64,000 bases of DNA from Azolla caroliniana (taxonomy: Eukaryota > Plantae > Polypodiophyta): contig JBHGNT010000016.1 in assembly GCA_043228905.1 (NCBI GenBank), positions 18,104,001-18,168,000 of the forward strand, read 5' to 3'. This document shows positions 11,200 through 50,351 of the stretch, in pieces. Under the pieces are notes generated by a model. The model was not told where the DNA came from. It did no database searches and saw only the letters and a list, made by a program, of their open reading frames with translations. The number at the start of each line of letters is the position of its first letter. Position 1 is the stretch's first letter. Made by a program: the position numbers and the translations under genes.

Positions 11200-11350
11200 A
11201 TGGTTTTCTATTATTATCACCTAGGTTGGAATTACGATGCGATATTGATATAGGGGGTTGATATTCCAAAAACTGGAGCATTGTCTAGAACAATAATGTA
11301 GACAAATTCGTCACACGGTAGCCGATGTTGTTGTTGTGCTATTAGCTTAG

Positions 11351-12150: not shown

Positions 12151-12151
12151 A

Positions 12152-12224
12152 ACCGTCTTAGCTCAGTCAGTAGGGTGCTTGGCTTTTAACCACCTAGGCC
12201 TGGGTATGATTCTCACATATGGGG
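12152..12224 (+). pseudogene. Degenerate tRNA-Lys copy (monomer D)
   Basis: ACCGTCTTAGCTCAGTCAGTAGGG..GGCTTTTAACCAC; B box is mutated. Confidence 0.7.
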
Positions 12225-12485
12225 ATGGTTATTGTATTATTATCATATATGTTTCAACTAGGATCCGATATTGATATAAGCGGTTGATATTTTAGAACGT
12301 GGAGCATTGGTTAGAGCAAAACTGAAAGTTGTCGCATCGATAGTAGATGCTTTTGGTGTGTGTTTTCCTTAGTTTCACTGCTTTCGGGGTGTCAACCTAA
12401 AAACGAAGAACCCTAGCAATTGTTATGCTATTACGATAATTTTCGTATTGTGGCGGTTTCATGCTAACAATGAGATTACCATGGA

Positions 12486-12671
12486 GCCATCTTAGCGCAA
12501 TTGGTAGAGCGGCTGTGTTATGGCCATTACCATATCTCGTGGTAAGTTTTACCATACTACTCTATCCACATGTATAGAATACTATGGTAAAACTTACCAT
12601 AGGATATGGTCATGCCCGTAACAACGTGGCGTTTAACCACGTGGTCGTGGGTTCGATTCCCATAGATGGTG
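12486..12671 (+). pseudogene. tRNA-Lys copy (monomer E) interrupted by a 108-bp insertion
   Basis: Length 186 = 73 + 108 + 5; both halves match the tRNA consensus. Confidence 0.85.
12516..12623. mobile_element. 108-bp palindromic mini-element (TGTTA..TAACA)
   Basis: About 41-bp imperfect terminal inverted repeats; degenerate 5-bp TSD GGCTG/ACGTG, corresponding to consensus GCGTG. Confidence 0.8.
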
Positions 12672-12935
12672 ATGGTTGTTGTATTATTATCATATATGTT
12701 TGAATTAGGATGTGATATTCATATAGGCAGTACATATTTTAAAATGTGGAGCATTGGCTAGAGCAAAAGTATAAACAAAGTTGTTGCACCGATAATAGAT
12801 GCTTTTGGTGTGTTTTTTGCTTAGTTTCATTATTGTCGGTGTATCAACCTTAAAATGGAGAACCCATAGTTGTTATGCCATTCATATATTTTTTGTATTG
12901 TGGCGGTTTCATGCTAACAATGAGATTTGTGTGGA

Positions 12936-14248: not shown

Positions 14249-14477
14249 ATGGTTCTTGTATTATTATCACCTTTGTTTGAATTACGATGGATATAGATAT
14301 AGGGGTCTCATAACCCAGAAGATTGAGCATTGGCTAGATGCTTTTGGTGTGTTTTCTGCTTAGTTTGATTATTGTCCGTGTATCAACCTTAAAATGGAGA
14401 ACCCATAGTAGTTGTTATGCCATACATATATTTTTTGTATTGTGGCGGTTTCATGCTAACAATGAGATATGCGTGGA

Positions 14478-14550
14478 GCTGTCTTAGCTCAGTCGGTAGA
14501 GCGCGTGGCTTTTAACCATGTGGTCGTGGGTTCGATTCCCATAGACGGTG
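14478..14550 (+). tRNA. tRNA-Lys(UUU), near-intact (monomer A')
   Basis: All four stems pair if G-U is allowed; A box TAGCTCAGTCGG and B box GGTTCGATTCC are intact; no adjacent oligo-T terminator. Confidence 0.55.
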
Positions 14551-17500: not shown

Positions 17501-17862
17501 CAATGTAAGATTAAATGAAAATGGTTTACTTGAGAAGAAGAAAAATTGTACACTTGAGAAGTAGAAAAATATGAAGAAGATAAAGACAAATATAATTTAT
17601 ATTGATGATAATGGTGTTGGTGATATCACATATTGAGCCCCCCTTACACAAGCCCAACTAGAGGCTTTTATAGGTCTTTCCATGCTCGTGACATGCACAT
17701 AACCATGGGCTAAAACCATGGTTTTGTGCACACGGTTTTGCTTATGTCATGCACAAACCATGGGTTTAAAACCATGGTTTTGTGCACATGGTTTTCTATG
17801 GTTGTTTCGTCTATAATTTGTATATGAAAAGGAAATACATACAATCTACACTATATGATAGT

Positions 17863-17921
17863 TGTCCTAGTGGTAAGGCAATTATCTTGTATGTTAGAGG
17901 TGCAAGGTTCAATCCTTGCTT
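17863..17921 (+). promoter_or_regulatory. tRNA-like Pol III A/B-box module in the LTR (second copy 20845-20903)
   Basis: TGTCCTAGTGG ... GTTCAATCC starting 44 nt apart; hairpin GCAAGG-TTCAAT-CCTTGC. Confidence 0.6.
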
Positions 17922-18085
17922 GCACCCCTCTGTATGAACTCAAGTGCCATTAGGCTAGGTTTATTTGCTAAGTGCATGTGCAATGTTGCACATCCTTGGT
18001 TTATTCGTCTCACTCGGTTTCACACCGTAGCCGAAAATTGTCACGACATCCACCCCCACCAAACCCGCACATCCTCCGGTATGTG

Positions 18086-18297
18086 CCGAGAAAGGTGAAG
18101 AGGTGAGATCTTTGGCAACGGTGATCAACCGAGTTCCTCTACACGCTCGTCGACTTTGTCTTCCACTTCGAGTATGCGCAATCTTTCCAACCCGAGAAAG
18201 GTGAAGAGGTGAGATCTTTGGCAACGGTGATCAACCGAGTTCCTCTACACGCTCGTCGACTTTGTCTTCCACTTCGAGTATGCGCAATCTTTCCAAC
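18086..18297. repeat. 106-bp perfect tandem duplication spanning the ORF stop and 3' UTR
   Basis: CCGAGAAAGGTGAAG..CTTTCCAAC at 18086 and 18192. Confidence 0.95.
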
Positions 18298-20341
18298 CGA
18301 ACCACCGTAGCCACCCGGTCCACCATATCCGGCGCTCACACCTTCTTCCCCGATCGGTTGTAGTAGATCTACCGAACGATGTCGTCGATACGACCGCTCT
18401 TCCTTCGTCCACCGCGCGTGTCCTTCGATTGGACTCCTGGCCACTCCTCACGCTCACCGTCTTCAACTGGGTATTGTAGATCGTTCGTGTTGATCTCCGA
18501 TTAGGCCGGGTTTGCCCTTGTCCGGATTGGTCTCCACCGATCGCTTCTTGGCTTGGTTGGCCTTCGTCTTCATTCACATTTCCCCGAGTCGGGCTCGACC
18601 GATTGATTCTGGCTGGGTTGGCCCCCTTTTGGATCGGAATCCTCCGATCGATTTTCGCCGAATTAGGTTTCGGTCGGGTCGGCCCCGGTCGATCGGCTCC
18701 CATGTGGATCTTCTTTCGTTCGGGTCGGAATCCCGACCGGATCGTCTTCCGGTTCAACCGGTTCTCGACTCTTCCTTCCTTCCCGCATGCAACCTCTCCA
18801 TCGAACTCAACCGCAGGTTCATCCTTGGCCTCCACGTCGGCCATATCCTTCCCTCCGTGTATGCTCGCCGCGAGCCATATTGTCTCCTCTTCGCCACCTC
18901 CTTTATCTTCAGTCTTATGTCGACACACGGTCTCGACTGCCGAAGTCTTCGGAACCAGTGTGAAGGAATCCCTTCGTTCATTTACATTTACCTTGTCTTC
19001 TTCATCGCCCTTCCGGTCGTCCTCTTTTTTGTCCACACATTCTGTCTCTCCGGTCTCACGTTGGCGCACGTGCACAACCGCCGAAGTCTCTAGAATAGGT
19101 GTGGGGATATCCTTTCTTGCTCGATCTTCTTCCTCTTTGTGTTGTGCCTTTGTCTTCCCTTCACCACCTTCCGTCTCTCCGGTCTCACGTTGGCACACGG
19201 GTGCAACCGCCGAAGTCTCTGGAACAATCGTGGAGAAAGTCTTGACATGGCTATCCGTTGTCGACTCGTCCATAGCCACCTCCGACTCGATGTCGTTTGT
19301 CATGGCTACCTCCTCAATCTCTTCAGACTCAAACACTTTTTCTCCCTCGATCATGCAAGCTTTTCTCATGCTTGCGCCGTCATCACCCGATGTTTCGTAC
19401 ACAATGCGTGTTCCAAAACATTTATCCTCCCTCGAAGTGGCGTTCGCCGTCCTCGAGTCATCGGCCTCCTCCTTCGCCGTCGTTTCTTTGTAAGACAAGA
19501 AGGTGACTTGTTTCACACCTTCTCTCTCGGTACCGTCATACTGAACCAGAGCCTTTGTATCGGCCACTTCATTAACCCGCATTTGTTGGGAGGTCTCTTT
19601 TCCCTCGATCACCATTCGCCTCGGTTTTGTCTCCCTTCTAAGCTTCATTTCTTTTGTTGGTGGTGCGTTGTTGCATCTCGTCCCTCTTCGATCGTCCCTC
19701 ATGGGCCGTCTTGTTGTCGTCGATATTCTCGCTTGCCCCTTATCGTGTAGTCGGCATACACTTTCCACTTTGCTCCAATCCTCGATGAGGCCATTTGCAC
19801 CATCATCTTCTTCAAGTTTGAGGCCGATCGCCATCCTTTCCATTCGATCGATTGACTTCACGAACATAAGGACCTTATCGACCCCCACCAATCTTTGTTC
19901 CCGCTCCGACAATTGAGAAAAATGATGCTCGAAGTCTACGAATGCTTGTGTTGCGCCTTGGTGGGTCTTCGCTGATGCCACCCATTGGTCGAAGTTGTGT
20001 CGATCTTGTCCCTTTAGTCTCTCATAGTCATATTCCTCCAATAGAGCCTCCTCGAAAGTCGACCACGAATCATGAGCTTCTAGAAGCTCTTCTACATCTT
20101 TGAAGATCTGTTGAGACACCACCCGACAAAAGTACTCTAGCCTCATAGCTTTGTCCACACCTCTTGAATCCATCTCCGCATTGTAGACTTTTAGGAAACT
20201 TTGGACATCGGCGCCGTTGAAATAGCTCATTCGTTCGACTACTTTGTCGACGGCTTGTTGGGCTTCATTTCTTCTTTTCTCTTCTCTCAGAAACTCCATC
20301 ATCCTTCTTGCCATTGCCTCCATGAGATATTCGCCATCCAT
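18245..20341 (-). CDS. Gag-like protein, 698 aa (capsid-like N-terminus, acidic repeats, Trp-rich C-terminus, no CCHC knuckle)
   Basis: Uninterrupted ORF; FEHHFSQLS..KVLMFVKSID..DWSKVESVC matches Gag of the autonomous family (FEERFARLS..RVLFFVKAVD..DW). Confidence 0.85.
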   Translation of the reverse strand: MDGEYLMEAMARRMMEFLREEKRRNEAQQAVDKVVERMSYFNGADVQSFLKVYNAEMDSRGVDKAMRLEYFCRVVSQQIFKDVEELLEAHDSWSTFEEALLEEYDYERLKGQDRHNFDQWVASAKTHQGATQAFVDFEHHFSQLSEREQRLVGVDKVLMFVKSIDRMERMAIGLKLEEDDGANGLIEDWSKVESVCRLHDKGQARISTTTRRPMRDDRRGTRCNNAPPTKEMKLRRETKPRRMVIEGKETSQQMRVNEVADTKALVQYDGTEREGVKQVTFLSYKETTAKEEADDSRTANATSREDKCFGTRIVYETSGDDGASMRKACMIEGEKVFESEEIEEVAMTNDIESEVAMDESTTDSHVKTFSTIVPETSAVAPVCQRETGETEGGEGKTKAQHKEEEDRARKDIPTPILETSAVVHVRQRETGETECVDKKEDDRKGDEEDKVNVNERRDSFTLVPKTSAVETVCRHKTEDKGGGEEETIWLAASIHGGKDMADVEAKDEPAVEFDGEVACGKEGRVENRLNRKTIRSGFRPERKKIHMGADRPGPTRPKPNSAKIDRRIPIQKGANPARINRSSPTRGNVNEDEGQPSQEAIGGDQSGQGQTRPNRRSTRTIYNTQLKTVSVRSGQESNRRTRAVDEGRAVVSTTSFGRSTTTDRGRRCERRIWWTGWLRWFGWKDCAYSKWKTKSTSV

Positions 20342-20362
20342 CTTCGTCCTCCCCTGCTGCTC

Positions 20363-20380
20363 TTCACGTCGGGTTCACCA
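20363..20380 (-). other. Primer-binding site for tRNA-Trp
   Basis: TGGTGAACCCGACGTGAA is complementary to the plant tRNA-Trp(CCA) 3' end as I recall it (..TTCACGTCGGGTTCA-CCA); same site at 49602-49619 and about 51447-51464. Confidence 0.85.
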
Positions 20381-22728
20381 GATGATGTCGCGAAGATTCG
20401 CGCGTGCGTGTGCTACTCGAGCGACCACCGGGGTCTTGGACTGGGGAGGATGATCGCGGAATTATCGACGCTAGATGACGATCAATGTAAGATTAAATGA
20501 AAATGGTTTACTTGAGAAGAAGAAAAATTGTACACTTGAGAAGTAGAAAAATATGAAGAAGATAAAGACAAATATAATTTATATTGATGATAATGGTGTT
20601 GGTGATATCACATATTGAGCCCCCCTTACACAAGCCCAACTAGAGGCTTTTATAGGTCTTTCCATGCTCGTGACATGCACATAACCATGGGCTAAAACCA
20701 TGGTTTTGTGCACACGGTTTTGCTTATGTCATGCACAAACCATGGGTTTAAAACCATGGTTTTGTGCACATGGTTTTCTATGGTTGTTTCGTCTATAATT
20801 TGTATATGAAAAGGAAATACATACAATCTACACTATATGATAGTTGTCCTAGTGGTAAGGCAATTATCTTGTATGTTAGAGGTGCAAGGTTCAATCCTTG
20901 CTTGCACCCCTCTGTATGAACTCAAGTGCCATTAGGCTAGGTTTATTTGCTAAGTGCATGTGCAATGTTGCACATCCTTGGTTTATTCGTCTCACTCGGT
21001 TTCACACCGTAGCCGAAAATTGTCACGACAACGCGTTTCTTCTTCCTCTAACTGGTCCGCTGCTCCCGACACCTGCTCCGAAAGCCATCTCAGCCATTGT
21101 GGCTTTGTGCTTCCTGTGTCGGAGTAGCATTGCTCACTTCTACTTCTTAACTCAGGCTGTTTTTCCGGCCTTTTCTCTGGCTCCGGCGCTTGTTCATTCC
21201 TCTTCTCCGGAATGACCGATTCTCTGAAGTCCGGCAAAACGGGTTCCGGTACTGCTTCCCTCGGTGCGGGTTCCAGTACTGCTTCCGCCCCGGCTACTGG
21301 AGGTGGTCCTTGCGCCCTCTGCTGAGTTCTGTCAACTGGTGGAGCCGGTCCTCTTGCCCGTCTCTCCCGACCTTGTCTTGCTGGGAGTCTTACCAATGGT
21401 TCGGATGAGTCTTCTTCCGTCTCAGCTTCCTCCTCCGGTGCGGTGCGGCTACCAGACGGACCTTTTGTATAAAGTCCTCTGGTTCCGGTTCCGGCCGTCG
21501 CAGCATTATATTGATTGGTTTGAGTGCTACCGGTTCTTCCTCGACCGGTTCCTTGTTGGTCTTCCTCGCCGGTTTTCCTTTGCCTTTTCCTGCCGGTTTT
21601 GCCTTTGTTGCCGGTTCATGTTGCTGTCGGGATGGTCCTTCCTCCTGCTGTTCTGCTTCTTCCTAGGTCCATCCGGGGGTGTGTTTCTCCAGGATCTGTC
21701 GGCACTTTGTGACCTTTTTCGGCGTCGTCTCCTGCCGACCTCTTTTCTTTTGTTTGATGGGGAGCACCGGTGGGACTAACACCGTTAGCCATTGTGCTAT
21801 CCCGACACATGGCTTTTTTCCTTCCACAAGGTTCTTGATGGCCTCCTTCAATCCTTCGGTTATGAAATGGAGCCAGTCCACTTGTAATCCTTCGTACGTT
21901 GCCATTATGAACGCTGCCCGGTACTTGGCTATGGCCGGGGGACGAGAATTCACGAATCCGTACTCCATCATGGCGCGGGCCACTTCTCCGAACAACAGGT
22001 TCTCTCCGCCTTGTGTTCGGTACGCCTTGCTGCTGATGGAATACTCACCGAAATATTCGAACAGGATTTGACTTGAAGGGTTTTCGATCGTTTGAAGTCC
22101 TCCTGCTTTTATCCCCGTGAGCGCCTGCACCGCTCCTTCCGTGACTTCTGATAAATCAATCGATGCTGCCGCCTGCTCCGGTTCTGCGTGTGGTGGAGCG
22201 TCGGCGATCCGCAACAATCCTTCTAACCCGTTCTCTATCATCCATTGGCGTGCCTCTTCCGACAGTGCCATTGGTTCGGATTCTTCTTCTGCTGTCTGTT
22301 GTTCGGGATCGGGATGTGTGTGCTCTGTGCGTCGGATCGCTCTTCTGTGCTTCTGCGCCTGTGTGTAGGAAAATTCATAAAAAGTAAGTCCTTCGCAGGC
22401 CTGTGTCTTATATAGTGGCTTTTGCCTCGAGCCGCCCTTTTTCGGTTCCCGCGCATGTCTATCTCCCGCCATAATTAGCGTGTCCTTTCTTGGTTGCCGT
22501 GTGTGCATATCTCCTGTCATCATTAGCAATTCTTCTCTTGATTGCCGTGCGTGCATAATACCTCGTACGTCGGTGCCCACGTTCTATGCTTTAAATAGCA
22601 AGTACGCGCACGTCCTCCTTTACTTCATGACGCCTCTTCATTGAATGGTGGCGCTCCCACCTCTTGTGATCTCCCCATCATCATTACTTTGATTTTTTTT
22701 TAAAATTTATATTTTCTTTTCGGTCGGT

Positions 22729-25700
22729 TTACGCTGATACCGGAATCTCCTTCTGTCGGTTTTCCGGGATAGTCTTTGTCGGTATCGATGTTGGTTCTTC
22801 CTCGGTCCGGATTTCTGCAGCAGCGTCTCTCAGTGTCAGTTCCTCATCGTGCCGGATTTCCGAGTCTTGCTTGAACGGGTTGGTTGGCATATGTCCCTTA
22901 TACGGCTTTAGCCGAAACCCATTTGCCCACTTACCGATGACTTCTCCAGACAACGTGCCGAGCTGATACGACCCATTGTACTCCTTGGTGATCCAGAACG
23001 GTCCGGTCCACCGAAACCGCAACTTTCCCGGCATGTTCCCCATCCGTGTCTGGAACAGTAGCACCGGTTTTCCGACTTCGAACTCCTTTTCGTTGCCACG
23101 CCGGTGTCGGTCCACGAAAGCTTTTCTCCTCCTTTGCTCCAGTTCGAGTTGTAGTAAGCTGGCTATTCGGTTTTCTTCTAATTCCAACAACGTCGCTAGC
23201 CGGATTCGTTCGGACTCCTTCTCACTTAAGCGCTCCTTTACCTAGATCCGTAAGCTGGGGATCTGGAACTCTACCGGCATGACCGCTTCTAAGCCGAATG
23301 CTAGTCGGAACGGGGTTGTCCGGATGCTGGTTTTGTACGTTGTTTGGTACGCCCATAGCGCGCTCTGCAATTTCGTATCCCAGTCAGTCCGGTTCTCGTT
23401 GACGATTTTTCGTAGGATGTTCTACAGAGTTTAGGGTGGTGGGCCACCACAGTCCGCTCTGCCATATTTTCCGAGCGGTTGCGTCGCCGGCATAATGCCC
23501 GCCGGCAATTCCACAGTGGGCTTCCTTGAGGATTAGATCCTTCTCATCGCTCCGCACTGCTCGTCTCCAGATGCCATCTGCCCCCTTGTGATAGAGGGTG
23601 TCTCCAACAAAGTAGAAATGTCTGCTTCTTACTGCTACCCTTTTCCTTTCATCGCGGTCCATGTTCTCCGGGGGTACTCCGGTGCTCAGGAACTGATGCA
23701 TCTCGGTTAGCCACTTGTCTTCATGGGCTACCGTTGCATCCGTTGCCGGTTCTGTCGTGATCCGGAACAACTCGACGTCGGGGAACTCATCCTGTACACC
23801 GTCCCCTGCTTCTCCGGATTCGAGTCTGCTTAGGTGGTCCGCTACCGCATGCTGCGCCCCGGGTCGGTGGAAAATGTCGAATTCAAATTCCTGTAACAAC
23901 AGTGTCCATTGTGCAATTTTTCCCGTCAGGGATGCCTTCGAGACCAGGTAGAGTAGTTCCGAATGGTCGACATGGAAGGAAAACTTCCTTCCGAGCAGAT
24001 AGTGCCTGTACTTTGTGACACTATACACCATTCCTAATGCCTCTCGTTCTGTCGTAGAGTAGTTCCGTTTGGCTTTTGAGAGTTTCCGGCTTGCGTAGTA
24101 CACCGGCCGGTACCATTTCGGCTCCGTGAGTTGCATCAGAACGCTGCCGATTGCTACGTCCGACGCGTCGACGAAGATGTGAAAGATTTTACTCCAATCC
24201 GGCGGTTGCACCACCGGAGCTTGCGACAACATAACCTTCAGCGCTTGGTAGGCTTTCTCCTCCGTCTCCGCCCATAGGAAGGGTACCCTGTGTACGGCGG
24301 CATGCAATGGTGTAGCGAAGTCTGCGAGGTGCCATATCATCCGGCTATGCCACCTTATTTGGCCCAGGAACCGGCTTAAAGCCTTTGCGTTATTTGGTGC
24401 CGGTGCCTCGAGAATCGCCTTTACTTTATCCGGATCTACCGCGATTCCTTCCTTACTCACCACGTGCCCTAGTAAGTTGCCGCTTGCCACTCCAAAGACA
24501 CACTTGGCTGGGTTCAGACTCAACCGGTACTCGCGGCACTTCTCTAAGCACAGCCGGAGGTGATCGAGATGCTCTCCGTGCCGGCTGTAGACCGCGAAAT
24601 CGTCAAGGAAGACCTGCATAAAACCGGGGATATATTCCCCGAAAATTTGCATTATTATCCTTTGAAAGGTCGCTGGGGCCGTCTTTAGTCCGAACATCAT
24701 CACGACCGCGACGAACACTCCCCATTCCGTAACGAACGCTGTCTTCTCCTGGTCGTCCGGGTTCATTCGTATTTGGTTGTAACCGCTAAATCCATCCAGG
24801 AAGCTGTAAACTTCGTGGCCGGCTACCGCATCTAGCACCCCATCCGTAAATGGTAGTGGAAACGCATCGGTCACCGTTGCAGCATTTAGTTTCCGGTAGT
24901 CCACGCATACCCGGAATTTGCCGTTCTTTTTCGGGACCACCACTATCGGACTCAGCCAGGTTGCCTGCTTGACCGATCGGATAAATCCGACCCGGAGGAG
25001 CTTATCAATCTCCTCCTTCACCTTCGCCGCATAATTCGGATTCATCCGGTACCTGCGTTGAGCGATCGGTTTCGCGTCCGTACTTAGGTGAATTTGGTGC
25101 TAATAGAGATGGGGGTCCAGCCCTCGCATGTCTTCGTACGACCATGCGAACACATCCTTGAAGTCTGTTAATAATGCTACCATTGCCTTCTTTTCTTCCT
25201 TCGGCAATTCCTTTGCGACATTTACCGGTCGGGGCTTGTCTGTTGTGCCGAGGTCCACCTCCTCTAGTTGGGATGCTTTTACCCTCTGGGATATCGTCAT
25301 CTCCCTCTCTACGGATTCCTGCGCTTGTCAGAGTTCCTGGATCGCCGCTTGGTCCGGTTCGTCCGGCGTCGTGATGTACAGTTCTACTGCTACCGTGATA
25401 TCCACCTCAAATAGTGGGACGATTCGTGGGTGTTCCTCGAGGTACCAATCGACTTCCTCGTCCGGTAGTCCCTCCAACATGTTGATGCTTTCCGCATACA
25501 ATGGAGTTGCTTCCTTACTGGCGATCACTCGTGGTTGCGTCGCTACTGGTACCTTTGTTTTCCCTCGCCAGAATGTGATCATGTTCTTTTGCCAGTTCTG
25601 CTTGATATGCACCGTTCGCAGCCATGGTCGTCCTAGCAGTAGGGGGTACGCACCTTGTACATTCAGCTGCAGCACCACGGCCGATATCCGGAATACGTGG

Positions 25701-28140
25701 CCTCCGATCGTTACTTCCAAATCCCGGATAAGCTCGGTCGGTCGGACTGAGCTGGTATCTGCCATGCGTAACCAAAAGGGGCATGGTTCCCATTCCCGGA
25801 TGCCCAGGTTGTCGCATGTCTGTCGGCTGATGACATTTACCCCGGAGCCTCCGTCAATAATTGTTCCGGCAATTTCCTTTCCTTTCACGATTGCCGTGAT
25901 CACCGGGCTACTTGTATCGACCACAGCTGGTCCTTCCTCCGGGTTGGAGAAGAATGCCGGTGCTGGCGTCGGCTTCGGTTTGCTCACGGATGCCTGTAAG
26001 TCTGCCGTAAACCGTGGCACCAACTGTAGTAGCCGTGCTAACAGCAACACGATTTGACAGTCCTGGAGCGCTTGCCACGTCGGGTTTTCTCCTGGCCGTA
26101 TGATTTCTTCGTCTTTTGGCATATTTTGGTCTCTTACTTCTGCCGCATTCTGTTCATTGGCCTCCTTGATCCATTGCGCCGCTTGTTTTCTGATTGCCTC
26201 CTGGGCTTCCCACTCGGCGGTCTTCCCCTTTGACCGGGTTGTGACCTGCTGCACTTCCGTTATTTCGACTGTAACCATGTTGACTGCCGATTGCTTGTCA
26301 TTGGTTTTGCTTGGGCATTGGTTACTATAATGGCCCTCCTTACGGCAGTAATAACAGTACACCTTGTGACTGTTGCTCGTTTCTCCTTTGTCCCCGGTTT
26401 GGGGGGTGGGTATACTTCGGCGGTCGTCTTCGGTTTTTCGGTTATCCGGTACCGATACCGGGTTGTCATTCCTTGCTGCCTCCCGACGTTCCTCTCTTCG
26501 GAAAAATCCACGCTTCTAATTCCGTCGGAAATTTCGGTTCCCTTGTCGCCTCTCTTCTCTGCGTCGTTCGTATTCCGGGGATTCGTCTCGGTCGTACCGG
26601 TCCCGGGGGTAGCTATCTCTGCGTTTCTCCTCTCGGTCATAGTTATCGCGTCTTCTATCAGCGTATCTATTACCACGTTCGCGTTGGTAGCGGTTGTCTC
26701 TCCGGAATCGATCCTCATCCGGGTCCTGATTGCGCGGTTCTATGTGTCGAACTGGTGCCGCCTGCCGATTTAACAGGTTATATTTGCATCGGTCCGTTGT
26801 ATGGGCTCAAGAGTTGCAGATCATACATTGTGTCCGCAGGTTGCAGTCTACCGTTGAGTGGCCCGAATTTAGGCATGTTGTGCATTGTAAGGCCTGTCGG
26901 AACCTCAGGTCTTCCTCCTTCAGGAGTGCCCGGTGTAACCTCCCCATCGACAAGAAGGAGCTAGTCTTGTCCATTTCTAAGACCCGATCAATAACTTGGT
27001 CCATTGTGCTGGTGCGGAAATCAAGGACTCCGCACATCGTTCGAAGTGGCTCTTTTAGCGCGGCCAAAAAGACTGCTTTGGCTTCGTCTTCGGGTGGTGC
27101 TCTCGTCAGTTGGTTGTGCAGGGTCTGAAACCGAATGATGAATTATGGCACAGTCTCGTTCTCTTCCTGCCGGGTGGTGTAGAACTGCCCGACCAATTCC
27201 CTTTGCTCAACTTGTCTGTGAAAAAGCCTGAGGAATTTGGCCTTCAAGGCATCGAATGTGGAAAAGCTGCCCGATAATTGCTTTGCGTGCCATCGGGCCG
27301 CCGGTCCTTCTAAGGTCATGCCGAATTCGGCGACTTTGGATCGTTCGGCTTCGGGCTCCGTCAGTCTTTGGGAAACATGGTTGGCTTCCCATGTTTGGAG
27401 GAATGCGTACACGTGTGCCTCCGCATCGGGCTCATCCCGGTACTTTGGGTATGGGTACGACATCGTGTCGTCCAACTGACTCTCCTGCTCTCTCCGCTCT
27501 CTGTCCGCTGTTGGCGTCGGTGTGAGAACCTTCGGTTCCTCCGCGGTTGGTGCCGGTATCCGCTCCTTCAGTTCCTCCGCGGGTGTTGTCGGTGTCCGGT
27601 CCTTCGGTTCCTTCGCGGCTGTTGTCAGTATCCGCTCCTTCGGTTCCTCCGCGGTTGTTGTCGGTGTCCGGTCCTTCGGTTCCTTCGCGGGTGTTGTCGG
27701 TATCCGGTCAGCCTCCCTCGGCGATTGCCGGTCACCAAACTCCAAGGTTATTTCTTCCTCTGGCTCCGGCGTTACTAAGTCTTCCGACTCCTCTTCCCCC
27801 GGGTCGTTTGGTGTGTCGTGGCTGCTTTTATACCGGGACGCAACGCTTCCGTCGTTTTCCGACTCCGCCTCGAGTGTTGCGAATGCTTCCGAGTCCCCGT
27901 CGCCACCGGCGAGCGTCTGTAGTATCATTTCCGCCTCTTGCAGGCTTGTTATGCTACTGCCTTCGTCGGGGACTTGCAGAACCCGGAACTGCAGTGCTTC
28001 TTCTACGACTCTCCGAAGAGTTCTGGAGAATGACCGATCCCGCCGGATCTCGTCGACGGCTTGCTGCAGGGCTTCCCATCGTCACTCTCGTTCGGTGTAT
28101 CGTCTCCCTCGTTCGGTGATGTGGTCGTCGTTTGGTCTAG
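22729..28140 (-). pseudogene. gag-pol of the Athila-like element (stops; integrase core deleted near 23430)
   Basis: CYYCRKEGHYSNQC knuckle, IIDGGSG protease, FLDDF RT, VDASD RNaseH, WWPTTL, WTGPF. Confidence 0.93.
27520..27710 (-). repeat. 36-bp coding tandem repeat (TPTTxAxEPKDR) in the Gag N-terminus
   Basis: About five copies in ORF 27143-27928. Confidence 0.9.
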
Positions 28141-31084
28141 ACATCCATCCCCCAGTTGTCCTCTGCACTTTGCAGGAATCGTGGTCACCAAAATAGTGTT
28201 GTATGCCTGGCCGGACTAGCCTCAACACAAGTGTCTATCCGACACTTCTCCAAAGGGGTGGTAAGGATTGGATGCTAGGTTACACGCGTAAGATTATTAC
28301 ACTAAGCACAGACGGTAAAACAATACAAAGACAAAGATAAACACACAATAAGTATAATTGTATTACTTCCGTAAAGCATTTACAAATCATCGGATCCTTT
28401 TATAGGCATCCGGCAAGGTTACAATCGGTGCGCTTAGGAAACCGGCATCCAAATCGGTCCGGATCCGGATCGGTACAACTGTACCGTTTCCGTCCCTCCG
28501 AATAATAAATATACTATTATTTACTTCCTATTATCCGATCCGACTCTGCCTTCCCACTTGTCATTGCTCTTCTGACCGGCCAACACCTGGAAGAGAAGGA
28601 ATGCTGATGCACTATGTACCATAGTCACTAGTGTATGTGACTCTGTACTAACATTAGTGCAACATACAACCAAGGCACATGAAGCTTGGAGCATATGGGC
28701 CAGCCAATATGAGACCAGAAACTATACAAGGATACAAAACCTTGAAAATCAGCTTGCTGCAGAGAAGCTCGCCGATGGAGAGAAAGTAGAATCCTTTGTA
28801 AAAAGGATTAAGGATCTTCAAGATCAGCTAACGGCTATTGGAGTAGTCGTCTCTCAAGAGGATATGGCTCGCCGGTGCATTCGAGTACTTCCTTTCAAGT
28901 ATGATGGCATTGTGACAGCATTGAACACTCAGGTTCGACCCACTCCTTTAAAATTTGATGAACTAAGTGTGATGCTGCTTGAAGAGGAGCTTTGGTTGAA
29001 GACAAGAGAAGGAAGGGAAGATTCGGCATTTGTCTCTAGGACTAAGGGTAAAGGGGCATCCAATTCAAATAATGCGAATAGGATACCAAAGAAGAAGTTC
29101 AATGGATCGTGTTTCTATTGTGACAAGAAGGGTCACACAATCAAGGATTGTCGGAAGAAGATGGCGGACGAGAAGAATGGTTATAGTAAGACCTCTTGGA
29201 GAGAGCCCGAGTCCGCCAACAACGTCGTAGATGAGCATGAGTTATGGGTTGCAACTGAAGAAGTGTGTTATGCAGTTGACACCCAAGTTGTCGATGACTC
29301 TTGGATTCTCGATAGTGGAGCATCCCGACATATGACCAGTAATCGTGACTGGTATAGCTCTTGGACACCTCTACAAGAGCCCATCAATGTTGTGGTCGGG
29401 AACAATGCTCGATGTCCAACCAAAGGAACGGGAACCGTCTCCCTCAAAGCAACGACCGGCGGGACAAAGCATCTCTCTCAAGTGTTGTACATGCCAGATC
29501 TCAAGAAGAATCTATTGTCCATTTTTGCACTGACCGACAAGGGTCTTGATGTTCGATTCAAGAAGTCAGGTGCAGAAATAACAGATTCTGCTGGCAAGGT
29601 TGTAGGAATAGGGGTAAGGCGCAACAATCTCTATGAGCTGAGCGCACTTACCATTTCTATTGACCATAGCACAAGTACTAACGCAAAGCAATGGCATGAG
29701 AGATTTGGGCATCTCAATGTTGCTGTGTTGAAGGAGATGAAGAAGTCGAATATGGTAGTTGGGTTGCCAACCCTATCTGACTTAAGTCATGTTTGTGATG
29801 CTTGTATGATGGGCAAGCATCAAAGATCAGCTATTCCAAAAGAGAGTCAAAATCGGACAAAGACTCCTCTACAACTAATACACATCGACCTCTCTAGAAA
29901 AATGGTGACTCCTGTAATGGGTGGATCTCTCTATTATATGCTGTTAGTTGACGACTTCAGTAGAAAGATGTGGGTTTACTTCCTTCAGGAGAAGGCTGAA
30001 GCTTTTAAAATCTTCAAAAGATGGCATACGTTTGTTGAGCAAGAGTCCAGAAAGTTAGTGACGGAGTTACGCTCTGATCGAGGTGGAGAGTTCTTATCAA
30101 TAGAATTTTGTGAGTATTGCAAAGAGCATGGAATTAGGCACCAACTTACAACTGCCTACACCCCATAACAAAATGGTGTTGTCGAACGTCGAAACCAAAC
30201 AGTTGTCGAGATGGCTAGGTGTATGTTGAAGGCACAAGCGCTACCTGACCCATTCTGGGCTGAAGCAGAGAATACAACAATTTACATCGTCAATCGGAGC
30301 TACACGAAGGCACTTCAAGGGAAAACACCCCACGAAGCATATTCAAGCAAGAAACCTTCAGTGCTACACTTCAGAACCTTTGGGTGTACGTGCTACGCAC
30401 ATGTTCCAGATGTGAGCAGAAAGAAGTTGGATGCTAAAAGCAAGAAGTGTATCTTTCTCGGATACAGTGAAGAGTCAAAGGCCTATCGACTCTATGATCC
30501 AAAGGCAAGAAAGATATTGACAAGCCGCGATATGGTGTTTAATGAAGAACAACCACAGCTAGCTGAGAACAACGATTCTCAAGTTATCTCATCAACTGAA
30601 GAGGTATTTTACCCAATCCCGACCCATTGTCCAGAAAAGGAAGCTGAATCATCTGATGGTAATGGCTCACTAGTTCAGCCTATGCCAGTCCCACATGTAA
30701 AGAAAATACCTAAGTGGGCTCAAAAACTCTTCAATGACCGTACTCCTAAAGTTGAGTTTCCTGAAACTTCAACTGATGGATTACGAAGATCAAGAAGAAT
30801 ACAGGAGCAAGGGAGAACCTCTGACCACATTGTAAACATGGCTCTGATGGTGGACATCATCGGCTCAGTGAGTGAGCCGACCTCAGTGGAGGAAGCCATG
30901 ACCAACCCAAAGTGGAAAGAGGCGATGATATCAGAATATGATAGCATCATGAAAAATGACACATGGGAGTTGGTAGAGAGGTCAACAAAGAAGAAGGTGA
31001 TAGGCACGAAGTGGGTGTGGAAAGTAAAGTATAAAGTTGATGATTCTTTGGAGAAATTCAAGGCTAGGCTAGTGTCATGATATG

Positions 31085-31142
31085 GCAAGACTCGAACCCA
31101 TGACCTTAGGTTATATGGGTCGAGCTCTTGACCATTATATTA
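31085..31142 (-). promoter_or_regulatory. Antisense tRNA-like A/B-box module at the start of the chromovirus LTR (also near 35541-35600, 58382-58442, 63580-63640 and 2272-2335)
   Basis: Best copy (63568 LTR) reads on the minus strand TGGTCTAATGG..AAGGTCATGGGTTCGAGTC with tRNA T8-to-G53 spacing; the A box is degraded in the 31073 copy. Confidence 0.55.
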
Positions 31143-31514
31143 TCTATTGTAAAATATTATTTTCATTTACATTTTATTATAGGAAATTAATGTATATTCC
31201 AGATTTCTCTGGAACATTCTAGAAGCTTCCGGATTACTCCTGAGAACACTATCAAAGAGGGCACTAGGCATTATGTTGAACCAAATTGGTTGAACAACGC
31301 TAGTCTTTAGCCTCATATCCCTTTTGTACTTACTCTTCTTATAATATATAATCTGTTATCATCATCTCTCTCTCTCTCTCGTCCTCGCTATCTCTCTCTC
31401 TCCTCTTCTCTCTTCCTCTCTCGGGGGTCTTACGTAGTCCCGTCCTCTTAGTACTAATAGTACTTCCCTTTTCTAGTACTAATTGTCTCTCTATTTAGTA
31501 CTATTCCTGACAGT

Positions 31515-31526
31515 TTGAACCAATTT
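31515..31526 (+). other. Self-priming PBS
   Basis: TTGAACCAATTT is the reverse complement of AAATTGGTTCAA (35746-35757), about 30 nt downstream of the LTR TATA box. Confidence 0.8.
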
Positions 31527-34500
31527 CCCCTTTTGTCTCTCTCCCTTCATAGTAATCTCTTATTCCTCTCTTTTCATCCCATGGCCACAGTTAGCGCTCA
31601 GGAATATCAATATGTTTTCTTAGAGTTTCAATGCTTGAAAGAGAAGTTCCTTGCTTTGGAACCAGAAAATCAACGGTTGTTGGGGGATCTTCAACAAATC
31701 TCCTTTGAAAAGTAGCAAACGCAACAACAACATGGGGAACTTGCATTACGCGTGCAACAACTCGAAGCAACCATCGTAGCGATGCAACAACAAGGCCCCG
31801 GAACACAAGGGATTCATAAGGAACACAAGGGATTCATAAGGAACCCAAGATTGACCTTCACACGAAGTTTGATGGAACACGATCGCAGTTTAGAGGGTTC
31901 CTGAATCAGGTATGATTAGTTATTCAAATGCATCCTTCCCGATATCCTACCAATGCATCACGAGTGGGTTTAGTAGGGACGTTGTTAAGTGGCTCAGCGT
32001 TGGCATGGTTCGCTCCACTGTTGGAAAAGGAGTTTCCATTACTCAACAACTTTGAAGAGTTTATAGGTGAGTTTAAAGCATGCTTTGGGGATACTGACAA
32101 CATAAGGACCGCAATCAACAAAATCCGGCGATTACGCCAAGGAGATCGTCCAGCCTCTGCATACACTGCAGATTTCCGCCTACTCGCCGCTGACATCCCT
32201 TGGGATGATCAAGCGTTGATGGAGCAATTCCGTTATGGTTTACGCAACGATGCCAAGGATTTACTCTTGACTTTCCCTAAAGAGACAAAGTCCTTAACAG
32301 AAGCAATCAATCGCGCGGTGAGATGTGACAACCGCCTTTTTGAGAGACGTTCGGAACGACAGCTATAGATGCCGAGGGCAAGATCAGAGCCCACCTACGC
32401 CTCAATGGCAGCAAAACCTTTACCAAGGGAGTACTATAATGCGCCTCCAGTGAATACTCTGACTCCGATGGAGATTGACACTACACGTTGTCGAGGGCCA
32501 TTATCGGAAGAAGAAAAGCAGCGACGCCGAACAAATCGATTATGTCTCTACTGCGGTGGACCAGGACACATTGAAATAAATTGTCCCCATAGGCCAAGAA
32601 GACAGGTAAACCAAATAGTTGCTAGTTCTAATTGTACTAAACCCGAGCCTATTACAGTAGGGATATTTGATAGTACTAATAGTACTAATAGCCTAGATCT
32701 AGCGAACAAATTTGATGTCCTTACTCAGTTAGAAGAAGAGTTAAACGACTAAGTCCAGCCAAAATAGGAGCCGTTTGGTTGGACAGCCCTAGATCTTTGC
32801 AGCCCATTAGTGGTTCCATTCCCTCTAAGCAAGTTAGCAATGTGCTCATAGCCCAAGTAACAGTTAGTACTAAAAGTACCCCTCCAGTACACGTCTTAGC
32901 ACTCCTAGACTCCGGAGCTAATTCTTGCTTTATGGATAGGATTTATGCCCAAGCTCGTCAAATATCTCTTAGAAAACTCCTGTGTCCATCCTTTGTAGTC
33001 GTCATTGATGGTCATCCCATTGCTTCCGGAAAAATCATAGAAGAGTCAGAACCCGTTAATATTGTCCTAGATAACTTAGCACGTGTAGTATCATTTAACA
33101 TTATTAGTATCCCAGAACATCCCATCGTTTTGGGATTACCATGGTTCGAGTTACATAACCCAGACATAGATTGGAGAACAAGAGAAATCCGGTGTCGACA
33201 AACCCGAGGATCTACTCAGAAGATTGCCACAATTTCACTACATCAATTGCGGGAAGAAGGACGCAAGGAAGAAATGTTTCTCTTCACAATATCACTAAAA
33301 CCCTCCGACACCATTAAAGAGGAGTCCACCGTTCAGCTTCCAAAGAAGTATCATCATTATGCCAATGTATTCGATAAAGTACGAGCTAATACGCTTCCTC
33401 ACCATCGACCATATGATTGCCCAATCGATTTACAACCAGGGAAAGAGCCACCATGGGGACCAATCTACAATTTGTCACCAACCGAGCTAGAAGTCCTTCG
33501 AGCCTATATAGAGGAGAATTTGGAGAATGAATTCATTTGACATTCGAAATCTCCAGCCGGCGCACCCATTTTCTTCGTCAAAAAAAAGGATGGCTCACTT
33601 CGTCTGGTGGTAGATTACCGTGGTTTGAATAAAGTTACAATCCGCAATAGGTATGCACTTCCCCTTATCTCAAGTCTTTTAGAACGAATCAATGGTGCCA
33701 GGTTCATCACAAAGATCGACTTATGGGGTGCCTATACCCTCGTACGGATTTGACCAGGAGATGAATGGAAGACCGCGTTCCGCACTAGATATGGGCACTT
33801 CGAGTATACAATCATGCCATTCGGCCTCACTAATGCGCCAGCAGTCGTCCAACACATGGCAAATGATATATTCCAAGATCTCTAGGATGTGTGTCTGATC
33901 ATCTACTTGGATGATCTACTGGTTTATTCAAAGACCGAAAAAGAGCATGATTCTCATGTACTATTAGTACTAAAACGATTTCGAGAACATGGTCTTTACG
34001 CAAAGCTAGAAAAATGTAGTTTCGGGTGCAAGCAGGTGGAATTTCTCGGCTACGTCATTTCATCAGAAGGCATCTCCATGGACCTAGCTAAGGTCAAGAT
34101 GGTGGTAGAATGGCAGACTCCGTGCTCGGTGCGGGATGTGCAATGCTTTTTAGGCTTTTCCAATTTTTACTGGAAGTTTATACGAGATTACTCAAAACTC
34201 ATTCTGCCTCTCACACAGCTTACTAGGAAGGGATAATCGTTCGTTTGGTCTGAAGAAGCAGATATGGATTTCGAGAGTCTTAAAAATGCATTTACATCGG
34301 CTCCAATTCTAGATCATGTCGATCCGGAAAAACCATTCATTATCGAAGCTGACGCATTGGATTTCGCATTGGGGAGCATTCTGTCACAACGGGGTAATGA
34401 TGAGAAGCTACATCCTGTGGCTTTTCACTCACGCAAGTTTGACGCCACCAAAATCAACTACGAAATTCATGATAAGGAGCTATTGGCAATAGTGGACTCG

Positions 34501-45400: not shown

Positions 45401-47623
45401 CAGGTGCTTCCATATGCACCCATCTCGTAGGAAGAATTGGTACGCTGTCTTCTGGATCCGGTTGGTCTCTTCCTTCGTCCACACCACGTCCGGTGTCATT
45501 GTCTTCAGGAACCCGCCGATCTGGAGCCACTCCCCGTCCTACTTGCTCTCATCAAACTCGTTAAGCGCCGGAGTGCTCCCCTTCCTTACTATTACGTAAG
45601 CCACCTTGAAGAAGTCCACCCGACTTCTTCGTCCTCCGAAACCATGCCGTCCTCATCATCGAATCTCGCCCACGAAAGCATGTCGGCCATGGCTTGTCTT
45701 TTTCGGAAATGTGTCGTATTTCCGGATTCAGGGACTTAATGTATGCTATCCACTTGAGCATTGCCAGGTCCGGCATCGTGCATCCGGAAACCATACCGAG
45801 AATCGGCAGGTAGTCCGCTCGATTATCACCTCCGTCCTGATTAGATAGTCTTTGTCGGCCTTGACCGCCGAAACGATACCCTAGAGTTCGCATTTAACCT
45901 GGGCGTACCCTCGTTGTCGTTCACTGAGGACTTTCGCGCCAAACCGGATGAGGAACCTCGTGCCATTCTCATCCTCCTAGTTGATCACCCATCCAATTCT
46001 GGTCGGACTCGTGTCTACGATCACGCAAATCGGAACGTCTTTACCGTAGACTGCTTTCCGGAGTGCCGGCGTCGTAGCATGTGCTTCTTTCATTTTCCAG
46101 ACCGACTCCGTATGCTCCTCTCTCCACTCGAATTTATGCCCTTTCTTCAGCAATCCATAGAGCCGCTCCGAGACGTGGGCGTAATGCGGGATCCAGATAT
46201 GGTAGAACGCGCATGCTCCCAAGAATCTCCGAACTTCTGTGACCGAATTGTAGTCGCGCTTCATTGCGGAGATGGCCTCTACTTTGGCCGCCGACGGTTT
46301 CTGACCGAATGACCCACATAGGTGTCCGAAGACCATGATCTTTGATTGTGCAAAGGCCGATTTTTCCCTAGAGAAGGTGAGCCTCGCGCCCTCTAGTCTC
46401 TGCAGCACCTTCTCGCAATCATCGACGTGGTCCGCCATGAACTTTCGGCATCCGTCCGGTCCGATTGTCTCGTCCTTATCCTCAACCGGGCATCCTTTGA
46501 TCGGGATGTCGTCTAAGAATGGCATGGTGATGTCCGTGGGCTACCGAGTTCGTCCCTCCTAGTGGAAGGGTACACATCCGTACTACGCCGAGGGGAGTCC
46601 GCATCGTCGTAATGTCCCTGCTCTCTACGACTAGTTGGAACTGATCGTATCTTGAGTACAAATCACCAACTGAGTAAATTGACCTTCCGGCGAAGGCCTC
46701 CGTGAACTCGTCTATGGTTGGTCCGATTCTTGCGTTCCGAATGGTCACCTTGTTGACCGGTTGTAGGTCTTGAATGAAGCGCAACGTGTCGTTCTTCTTG
46801 GGCACAATAAACCACCGATTAGAATATGGGGCACTCGACGGTTCGAGGATGCCCATGTCCACCTTCTGTTTCAGCAACTCCATTAGCTTTGGGATGTGAG
46901 CTCTGGGTACTGGAATTGGTTTGAAATTCCATGGTACATGTGGTACCGTGAAGATCACCATTGGTTTCACAATCGTCGGGTTTACGCACCCGATCTCCTC
47001 CAGCGAGAATGCGAAGGCCTTTCCGTGCGTCCCAAGCATTCTCCTCCACCGGTCCTCCTCCACCGGTAGTAGAAAGCCACCCCCACCGACCTTGAGCTCT
47101 CGTAGCGTTATGTCGGTGAAGCGGTGTCCTATGCCAGCCAGATCTCGTAAACTTGGGTGTGATGCGACCCCTTTCATCCGTAACTCGCTACCCTCCGGCA
47201 AGGGTGCCGCGACTGGCCTCACCTTCCGGTCCATAGTCTTGTACTTTGTATCCACTCAGGCCATTCGATCCGACTTGAGTCTTCTACCGAAGTCAGCGAT
47301 GACTTCGTACATCTCCACTGAACTAACCGAAATTGCCCAGTCTTCACTAAGGCCTCCTTCGACAACCTCGCGTAATTCCCCTAAGGTTTCATCGAAGGAG
47401 ACCGCCTCCACGGCACCGCCAACCTCTTCACTTGGGCCGAGGACTCCGTACGGCTTGAGTCTCTCTTCCACCCGCTTCTTCTCCCGGCCACTGATCCCGG
47501 CTATAGTAAAACCTCCGTTATTGGAGAACCAAAATTTCCTATCTATGGTACATGCGTGGGGTTCTTCCGGGGTATCCGGACTATCTAGGCCCCACGCCAT
47601 GATAACCCTCTCTCAAAATCCCC

Positions 47624-49606
47624 TCAGCTCTCGCCGCTGAGGGTCTCACGGTTTCGTTGCCGGCTCGTAGTACCCTCGACTTCTCTTGTTATGTTGACTT
47701 TGTCTCTCCATTTGGAGCACATCCATTCTTTCCACCCGAACCATTGTCGACATCCGATCCACCATAGTCTTCGTTCGCTTTTTGCATGGCCCGCTTGGTC
47801 CTTGTCATCCGCGGTAGTATCTTTTCTTGCCCTCTTTCTTTTCTTCATTAATCTCGACTTCTTTTCGGATTTTTGGTTTAGTCGGATTAGCTTACTTCCG
47901 ATTCAGTCTCGTCGGATCGTCTTTCGTTTAGTTCGGCTTCCTTTCCGATTTGTATTCGGTCGATCCGGACTCGGTTGATCGGTTTTTACCGATTCAGTGC
48001 TCTTTCGGGTCGGTTTCTTTTCTTTTCTTTTCGTCCGGATTTGCTTTCTTTTCTTCGTTTTCACCTGCCTTGTCCGGTTCGACTTTCGGTACTTCTTTCC
48101 GTTGTTCGCCACGTAGGTCCTCCGATATGTGCTCGTTGTTCGGTCCTCGTGTGGTTGTAATGCATGCTTCTTTTCTCGCCGTAGCGCGTGCTTCTTTATT
48201 CGCCATAACACGCGTTTCTTTATTCACCGTAGAGCGTGCTCTGTATTATGCGCTTCTCCCGTCGTAGACCCGACCTCCGCATTGTCGCACTTTCTTTTAG
48301 ATTGGAATTTCGGATGGATCATTTTCCATCCGAACCGACTTCCGACTTTACCTTCCTCGCCGCCATCTCCCGTCTCTCCGGTCTCACGTTGTTTCTCGGA
48401 CACAACCGCCGAAGTCTCTAGATATTGTTGGCATGAATCCTCGGTATTACCTTCTTTCGTAGTTTCACCCTTAGCATTCTTCTCGGCTATCTCTTCATCG
48501 TATTCGTCGGCTTCGACATTCGTTTTCTCTCCACCACCTTCCGTCTCTTCGGTCTCACGTTGCCTTTCGATCGCAACCGCCGGAGTCTCTGGAATCAGTG
48601 GTGGGGAAGTCTCGATATGGCAATCCGCCATTGATTCGTCCATAGCCACCTCCGATTCGATTTCGTCTTTTGTGGCTACCTCCTTAATCACATCCGCTTC
48701 ACACTCTTTATCTGCATCAATTATGCAAACATCTATTATGCTTACCCCTTTTTGACCCGATGTCTCGGGCACTTGTATCCCGAAATTTCCTTCTACACTT
48801 GAATTATCGGCCTTATCCTTCGCCATCGTTCTTTCACAAGACGAGTGGGTGTCTTGTTCCACTCTTTCTCCCGTGGTACCATCATGTTGTATTTCAGCCT
48901 TCATATTGACTTCATCGTTTTTCCTCAATCGACCATCCTTCATCGGCCATGTCGTTGACAAGATTCTCATCTTCCTCTCATCATGTCTCCGGCATACCCT
49001 TTCGACTTTGGCCCAATCCTCGGTAAGACCGTTCGCACCGTCATCGTCTTCGAGTTCGATCCCGATGTCCATCCTTTCTTTTCGATCGATCGATTTTACG
49101 AACATTAGGACTTTATCCTCCCCCACCAATCGTTGTTCCCGCTCCGAGAGTCGAGCAAAACGATGCTCGAACTCTAGGAATGCTTGTGTTGCACTTCGGT
49201 GGGTCTTCTCCGATGCCACCCATTCGTCGAATTCTCGCCGATCTTTTCCCTTCGATCTCTTGTAATCATATGCCTCTCGTAAAGCTTCTTCGAATGACCC
49301 CCATGTCGAGTTTTGTTGCCGTATCTTGTGGATTCTCTCTTGTAGCTCATCCGTGGCCACCCGATTGAAGGATGTCACTTGCAATCCTTCCGGTATCCCA
49401 CATCGTATCATCTCCGCCTTGTAGTCACGTAGATAGCGTGACACATCGTTTCCGTTGAATTGTCCGTTTCGTTGTACGAGCCGCTTTACTGCCCCCGTGA
49501 TCTCCGACATCACTCGTTGTTCTTGTAGCATCCGCTCGAACATCATCATCATCGTTATGCTCATTGCCTCTTGTTGATTCTCCATCTCCTTGCCACCCGC
49601 CTTCAC
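47624..49606 (-). pseudogene. Gag-like ORF of the second gag-only element (460-aa N-terminal part plus frameshifted tail)
   Basis: Shares ATQAF..FEH.F..LSEREQRLVG.DKVLMFVKSIDR, IESEVAMDES and RR.WW.G...WFGWK with the 698-aa ORF. Confidence 0.85.
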
Positions 49607-50351
49607 GTCGGGTTCACCAACTGTGTCGTGCCTTTCGGCTCCGGATCGTTGCGTGAGTCGGGTGGGAACCGCTGGGGTTTTGGACTAGGAAGAGGAGAGT
49701 TTTAAGGCTAATAAGAATATAAATATGTTGTAAGAAAGAGTTATAGCAAACTCGTGAATCCCACGAGTGTATTGTATTAGATTAATCAATATGAATATAA
49801 GAATATAAACTTCGGTTGAAAGAGAATGATATAGAATTCTCGTGAATCCCACGAGTATAGTTTATTAATTGGTGTTTTTTAGAAACATATCTAGTTTCCA
49901 AATATTTTTCACACAATTACATTGTGCTCCCCATCCTTATGTAGTGATGAGGAAGTCTTAGTAATCCATGCTTTTTCTCTAACTATAGACCCCATGCTTT
50001 TCCTATAGATAGACTATATGCTTTATCTAAAGTGATCATGTTTTTTTTCTAACTTGTGCGTTTTTTATCATGCACGCTAGATGTGTATGTGTAGCTTTTT
50101 CTTTTGTTATGCGTTTTTCTAATGTTTATCCTAGCGTGAATTTACCTTTCTATGTGGGACATCTATACTTTAACACTAATGAAATGCTAGTGTAATGGTA
50201 AGACATTACATTATTAACATGGAGGTGCAAGGTTCGAATCTTGCCCTATGCATGTTCCATTTATTTTGCTATTTTTCTTCTATTTCTTCATTTTTTATTG
50301 AATCTAATACTATATACGTTTTTCACGTAGTGTACAAAATACACTACGACA
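47665..50351 (-). mobile_element. Second gag-only non-autonomous element (diverged subfamily), 3' LTR deleted
   Basis: LTR 49624-50351 (TGTCG..CGACA), tRNA-Trp PBS, ORF homologous to 18245-20341; inserted in the gag of 43391-52194. Confidence 0.85.
50188..50245 (+). promoter_or_regulatory. tRNA-like Pol III A/B-box module in the LTR
   Basis: TAGTGTAATGG ... GTTCGAATC starting 44 nt apart; T-runs follow at about 50260-50276. Confidence 0.65.

Follow-up and report, generated by a model that had tools for sequence, protein, structure and literature searches.

A tRNA-like A/B-box module in the U3 region of LTR retrotransposons of Azolla caroliniana

What might the two internal promoter boxes of a tRNA gene be doing in the long terminal repeats (LTRs) of a retrotransposon, where they point out of the element? 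The question is raised by a 64,000-nt stretch of the Azolla caroliniana genome (contig JBHGNT010000016.1, positions 18,104,001–18,168,000; hereafter the window), in which plant LTR retrotransposons lie nested next to arrays of tRNA-Lys(TTT) genes and their relics. Two gag-only elements of this window, E1 and E2, carry a tRNA-like module composed of an A box and a B box in the U3 (unique 3′) region of their LTRs (Table 1). The analysis described here indicated that the module is a real, constrained feature with a wider distribution than first reported, and that it is a variant of the Helenus/Cassandra-type capture, outside those groups.

The A/B-box module of E1 and E2

The module was found at 20845 and 17863 in the two LTRs of E1 and at 50188 in E2, with the sequences and at the positions that the original prediction had given. 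In both elements the distance from T8 to G53 is 44 nt, which is the spacing of a tRNA and the distance claimed for the two boxes. Comparison with the primer-binding site (PBS), gag, and the polypurine tract (PPT), together with the TATA-like box at 20655, likewise confirmed that the modules lie within U3 and run antisense to the element. When 201-nt stretches were scanned by cmscan, positions 8–63 of the tRNA model aligned at 20845–20900 (16.2 bits) and 50188–50244 (13.4 bits). Thus, the low-threshold match to the tRNA model suggested as a check was obtained at the exact coordinates, but both scores remained under the gathering score of 29, and the whole-window Rfam scan did not report the E1 and E2 modules.

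The resemblance was also assessed by an A/B consensus score, with approximate weights drawn from general knowledge, against 500 dinucleotide shuffles per LTR. E1 scored 23.8 bits and E2 28.3 bits, and none of the 500 shuffles reached either value, which disposes of the objection that shuffled LTRs might give equal-scoring box pairs. The control LTRs, namely the two of the pol-bearing partner A and four other LTR stretches of the window, scored at most 3.5 bits; none had been noticed in the LTRs of the autonomous partner before. Since the LTRs of E1 are identical and E2 has a single LTR here, the window yields two independent module sequences, not three. E1 and E2 agree at 19 of 22 nucleotides in positions 44–65 and at 10 of 22 in positions 22–43 (Fisher p = 0.0097), while 8 of 13 agree in positions 8–21. 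The T-arm, said to be kept while the anticodon arm was scrambled, is kept as sequence; only three of its five stem pairs form in the tRNA register. The remark that the two LTRs do not align by eye over most of their length needed correction: they are collinear homologues with approximately 47% aligned identity and a common U5 motif.

The features of a type 2 RNA polymerase III (Pol III) promoter present in E1 and E2 are the A box, the B box, and the tRNA spacing, the A box being loose in its 5′ half. A functional tRNA gene was ruled out, as ARAGORN made no call, the Rfam scores stay below gathering level, and neither the acceptor nor the anticodon stem has been preserved, and no match to 5S rRNA was obtained in the Rfam scans of the window and of the E1 and E2 modules. 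The sense strand of the element contains a second A-box-like sequence, near-perfect, at 20939 and 17957 (minus strand); when the B box is read in reverse, the two are 43 nt apart. Its 16.9 bits fall within the shuffle tail and it is weaker in the survey loci L031 and L015.

The window also contains five antisense modules, located at the tip of U3, in the LTRs of chromovirus copies (C1–C3 and the more distant C4), which scored 21.3–28.3 bits, a range not reached by any of the 500 shuffles in each case. Local Rfam scans of the C3 and C4 modules at E 10 gave no tRNA call, so these two are called by the consensus score alone. Element C has a chromodomain after the integrase (PF00385, E 4e-13) and a predicted self-priming site, that is, the features of a Tcn1-like chromovirus. 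The sequence past the 5′ LTR of C1 (31513–31526) is complementary to a stretch approximately 30 nt beyond the TATA box, as in Tf1-type self-priming, and the target-site duplication (TSD) is GCTAG.

Conservation and distribution of the module

Further LTRs were collected in one metagenome scan, where the query consisted of the PBS and the U5 motif and was therefore blind to the module. It yielded 67 loci with 70 PBS–LTR junctions and 46 complete LTRs according to our own end-calling; the loci are not independent, because they derive from a few source assemblies and include near-copies. At least 20 bits were reached by 15 of the 46 complete LTRs (12 antisense, 3 sense), and L063 contained a damaged module copy (13.9 bits). 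The survey LTRs and three LTRs of the window formed 15 Phygy-like clusters at 70% identity, and the module occurs in four of these.

For conservation, 12 LTRs were aligned, comprising every complete member of the E1 and E2 clusters minus three duplicates. A14, R15, G18, G19, G53, T54, T55, R57, A58, Y60, and C61 conformed in all 12 LTRs, while the free positions vary. The site rate of the 11 core positions was 0.64 versus 0.98 for the 209 other U3 sites (permutation p = 0.0003), and that of both boxes together was 0.81 versus 0.98 (p = 0.0097), although the permutation of sites overstates independence, since the aligned LTRs are related and share a common history. The box core is under more constraint than the neighbouring U3, as the original prediction had expected. 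The rate of positions 22–43 was 1.06 (permutation p = 0.86), i.e., the anticodon region is not slow. The slowest of 198 U3 windows begins at 20880, and the 57-nt windows free of indels (22 of 588 in the 10 LTRs with the least redundancy) fall exclusively at 20832–20909. Contigs of four runs, representing four organisms, contained 18 variable places in the 181 nt between 20790 and 20970, none of which was at 20846–20859, and only the free position 59 varied at 20879–20913. A depth peak over 20881–20901 in all four runs agrees with a T-arm that is shared more widely, but was not counted, because contig depth cannot rank parts.

Compensatory change was found in none of the eight predicted consensus pairs, which indicates that sequence, not RNA shape, is kept. 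With the stems lost and compensatory pairs absent, what remains kept is the sequence of the boxes and their spacing. A conserved two-hairpin RNA was also considered and was rejected for want of covariation. L001, the gag of which is 92% like that of E2, was dropped as a candidate for natural module loss, because the LTR proved to be interrupted after 243 nt.

The module had been described as an antisense one of gag-only non-autonomous elements. Neither the restriction to such elements nor that to the antisense orientation was supported. The gag-only L021 and L060 are without it, while it is present in the pol-encoding L038 and L027/L058 and in the chromovirus LTRs, and the copies of L038 and L027/L058 are in sense orientation. 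In L038 (gag–protease ORF of 730 aa, pol match 75%), the U3 module reaches 28.3 bits, which none of 500 shuffles attained; it has the 44-nt spacing of E1 and E2 together with a T-arm similar to theirs, and the TATA box follows approximately 80 nt further on. L027/L058, which contain RNase H and integrase domains, have a U3 module closest to the tRNA-Met in L044 (38/58). The 2.35-kb unit L019 is non-coding (no open reading frame [ORF] of at least 150 aa), and it has an E1-type LTR, the PBS, the PPT, and the module. Every module is in U3, approximately 80–190 nt upstream of the TATA-like box where this could be placed (the TATA box of E2 is uncertain).

In a 38-row gag tree, the bootstrap of which is not settled, the antisense LTR type appears on three separate branches. 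The gag of L028 and L031 groups with the partner clade, and their LTRs are 73–79% like those of the E1 cluster. This joining of partner-clade gag to an E1-type LTR suggests that LTRs have been exchanged between families. That the element can dispense with the module is evident from its patchy distribution and from the changes of C56 in L053, L063, and C2. At L046, two different gag-only elements stand head to tail with shared LTRs, both with the module, which may reflect a collapsed assembly.

Possible roles of the module and related systems

Considering these results, we regard the module as a worn tRNA-type promoter, lying in U3 in either orientation, which is likely kept as a predicted DNA site for TFIIIC that aids the Pol II promoter. 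We hold this reading with moderate confidence. A TFIIIC site fits best with the orientation independence, the fixed spacing, and the loss of structure, and with the analogy to the tRNA gene (tDNA) barriers of yeast and animals. TFIIIC and TFIIIB would bind the module and exert a barrier or open-chromatin effect on the neighbouring Pol II promoter, and a short Pol III RNA might be a by-product, but never the genomic RNA of the element. The module cannot transcribe the genome of the element, because antisense copies point outward and, in sense copies, a run of Ts lies at +77 to +91, ahead of the TATA box. The modules may have originated about three times or more, through insertion of heads of tRNA-derived short interspersed nuclear elements (SINEs) or of tRNA copies, namely in E1/E2 (possibly with L038), in L027/L058 (iMet-like), and in the chromovirus, and may have spread by LTR exchange between families. 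It is possible, but doubtful, that unrelated autonomous and non-autonomous LTR lineages of this plant group convergently co-opted tRNA promoters as portable, orientation-independent U3 TFIIIC barriers against silencing of their Pol II promoters and traded these LTRs.

Besides the relatedness of the aligned LTRs, several observations weigh against a kept TFIIIC site. The A box is loose in its 5′ half, with T8 conforming in 8 and G10 in 3 of the 12 aligned LTRs; C56 conforms in 10 of the 12, and it is a T in L053, L063, and C2. When the eight E1-cluster LTRs were ranked alone, the B-box window came no higher than 4th and that of the A box 7th, outranked by the U5 motif, the TATA box, and a palindromic repeat. 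Residues outside the boxes (A44–G46, A50, A51) are equally invariant. In C1–C3, the module and the LTR terminus (e.g., 35529–35610) together make up a long and imperfect inverted repeat (z approximately −3 to −6), absent in C4, which could explain part of the module conservation there. Eleven of the 15 LTR clusters, including those of partner A and of the gag-only L021 and L060, do without the module. Finally, in its accessible text, a review of plant barriers (PMC9540200) cites no plant tDNA barrier.

Alternatively, the boxes may belong to a Pol III gene and its small RNA may do the work, e.g., as an antisense transcript that covers U3 and the PPT and modulates silencing or reverse transcription. 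A run of at least four Ts at +74 to +140 in most copies would suit such a gene, as would the two hairpins formed by E1, E2, and L053 (z −3 to −5) and the single long hairpin of C1–C3. However, the folds differ by family, are weak in L019, L031, L042, L046, L063, L058, and C4, lack compensatory pairs, and are equalled in strength by other segments of the same LTRs. The LTR of E1 has no terminator (T runs at +323 and +772), and sense and antisense copies would have unrelated targets, so we consider a working small RNA improbable. Another explanation is that the module is a neutral relic of a SINE or tRNA insertion, hitchhiking in successful LTRs. The occurrence in 4 of 15 clusters, the damaged B box of some families, and the movement of LTRs between gag clades accord with it, and donors abound, given the many tRNA-Lys copies and pseudogenes of the window. 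Against drift alone stands the fact that the E1 and E2 LTRs, about 47% alike, share 19 of 22 T-arm nucleotides and the exact spacing around an arm that matches at 10 of 22; moreover, variation falls mainly on free positions, and independent captures are all in U3, upstream of the TATA box. A neutral relic thus appears somewhat improbable.

The antisense module might also act on the genomic RNA, as a second tRNA-binding site in U3 whose pairing partners would be the D arm and the T arm of the primer tRNA. The U3 of Ty3 contacts both arms of its primer (PMC5371799, accessible part), and a complementarity of U3 sequence to these arms would be a likeness to the bipartite PBS of Ty3; such pairing would likewise preserve the sequence of both arms and leave that of the anticodon arm free. 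Nevertheless, the sense copies (L038, L027/L058) are unable to pair with tRNA, partner A has the same PBS and no module, and pairing does not require a fixed A–B spacing. The chromovirus has self-priming-type complementarity after its 5′ LTR and would need no tRNA (Tcn1 is predicted to self-prime). The Ty3 model is inapplicable where the module is in sense or the element primes itself, and its chance of being correct is small. Least of all do we expect a promoter transcribing the element itself, in the manner of Helenus and Cassandra. The tRNA-like LTR sequence with conservation confined to boxes A and B recalls Helenus, but the module is antisense in E1, E2, and C, T runs end the sense copies before the TATA box, and the elements are at least 3.6 kb long, coding, and retain the TATA box, which makes this role very unlikely.

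The predicted TFIIIC site can be compared with several known systems. In the accessible text of PMC10886601 (Kojima 2024), Helenus/TRIMp3 elements have tRNA-like boxes A and B in their LTRs, as E1 and E2 do, but they are non-coding TRIMs (miniature retrotransposons with terminal repeats) of 311–1263 bp, whereas the elements described here are at least 3.6 kb long, mostly coding, and keep the TATA box; even the non-coding L019, at 2.35 kb, exceeds the size of Helenus TRIMs. In the consensuses of its supplement, as far as accessible, the tRNA part is in sense orientation, while the module here faces either way in U3. The same source remarks that “not a few” Repbase LTRs contain tRNA-like parts, of which the TRIMs alone were followed, so the capture of tRNA parts by LTRs is not unseen. 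As described there, the TRIM Cassandra resembles our elements in retaining a Pol III promoter sequence in plant LTRs and differs in that its boxes are of the 5S type, in sense, and drive the transcript of the element. According to the accessible text of PMC9540200, the barrier function of TFIIIB/C is established in yeast and tRNA genes supply insulators in animals. There, A and B boxes work as DNA elements beside silent chromatin, which is the mode proposed here, but those barriers are host-encoded, while our module is transposon-borne and known from its sequence. A literature search, mostly outside subscription papers, Repbase, and bioRxiv supplements, found Helenus and Ajax and no antisense or orientation-free A/B modules in the U3 of coding LTR elements.

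Cassandra, Helenus, and Ajax are tiny and non-coding, and the small-RNA promoters in their LTRs are believed to transcribe them. The module described here sits where the RNA of the element cannot be made, appears repeatedly in coding lineages that are unrelated, and occurs in both orientations. If it is bound by TFIIIC and protects the LTR promoter, it would represent a cis-acting anti-silencing strategy of transposons. In that case, elements with and without the module would provide natural pairs for asking whether plants have tDNA-type barriers, and many TFIIIC sites would be scattered through heterochromatin.

Elements and tRNA arrays of the window

Table 1. Positions of the A/B-box modules and of the elements carrying them or serving as controls
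Feature	Position	Strand	Remarks
E1, complete gag-only Phygy-like Ty3/gypsy element	17404..21030	−	3627 nt; TSD ACGC (4 bp)
E1 5′ LTR	20386..21030	−	645 nt; 100% identity to 17404–18048
E1 3′ LTR	17404..18048	−	preceded by purine tract at ~18049–18065
E1 TATA-like box (predicted Pol II promoter)	20648..20655	−	~190 nt downstream of module on element strand
PBS	20363..20380	−	common to E1, E2, and A
E1 single ORF, 698 aa, without pol	18245..20341	−	capsid-like N-terminal 200 aa, then low-complexity tail
tRNA-like A/B-box module, E1 5′ LTR, U3	20845..20901	+	antisense to gag
A/B-box module, E1 3′ LTR	17863..17919	+	
E2 5′ LTR (sole E2 LTR in the window)	49624..50351	−	
E2 gag-like ORF	48224..49585	−	
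tRNA-like A/B-box module, E2 LTR, U3	50188..50244	+	antisense; T4 at ~+84
Partner A (pol-bearing) 3′ LTR, without module	43391..44118	−	control, 0.4 bits
Partner A 5′ LTR, without module	51469..52186	−	control, 3.5 bits
A/B module, C1 5′ LTR, U3 tip	31085..31142	−	antisense; 23.8 bits, 0/500 shuffles
A/B module, C1 3′ LTR	35541..35598	−	antisense; A/B score, 0/500 shuffles
A/B module, C2 LTR	58382..58439	−	antisense; B box C56 to T; 21.3 bits
A/B module, C3 LTR	63580..63637	−	antisense; 28.3 bits
A/B module, LTR of more distant chromovirus C4	2276..2332	−	23.8 bits

The PBS of E1, E2, and A is presumably of the tRNA-Trp type. E2 sits inside partner A, and its 3′ end is missing together with approximately 850 nt of the host element. 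The nearest named relatives of the partner A reverse transcriptase are Riccia and Adiantum proteins (60–66%), which makes a non-seed land plant the probable host. The N-terminal 200 aa of the E1 ORF are 34% identical to the gag of partner A (E 3e-21). The E1 ORF had no Pfam match, and the gag profile had none in a PDB sequence search, while the model of the capsid-like region (predicted local distance difference test score 78) gave Arc capsids as top PDB matches, which are weak (E 0.12). In viral contigs, gag and the chromodomain had no match, nor did the PBS and the primer-tRNA pattern, and the prokaryote genomes searched, including for the primer-tRNA pattern, gave none.

Gag-only derivatives such as E1 are a likeness to the Phygy lineage of non-chromovirus Ty3/gypsy elements (Neumann 2019, PMC6317226, accessible parts) and to TR-GAG-type elements (PMC13570524, accessible parts). 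Its TSD, from one insertion only, fits the 4-bp NCGN rule given for Phygy in the accessible supplement of PMC6317226, which also gives tRNA-Trp as the dominant Phygy primer (81%). Unlike E1 and E2, these elements are described, in the accessible parts of both sources, with no mention of a Pol III module in the LTR.

The TATA-like box of E1 is kept across the E1-cluster LTRs. Palindromic repeats at 20670–20790, between the TATA box and the module, are conserved in this cluster as strongly as the boxes. The gag-only ORFs end in a tryptophan-rich motif (18248–18330, minus strand) kept in many homologues, while their low-complexity middle part changes fast, and an exact tandem duplication of 107 nt lies at 18086–18298, just inside the purine tract of E1. 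The tRNA-Lys(TTT) genes and their decayed copies form tandem arrays with a period of approximately 300 nt at 3613–3685, 11142–14550, and 38670–39445, in which ARAGORN called seven genes. A long hairpin at 12511–12631 within the tRNA-Lys array gave sub-threshold matches to miRNA families in the Rfam scan. A copy of the partner A family terminates directly within a tRNA-Lys copy at 11141/11142, at a CG-containing site.

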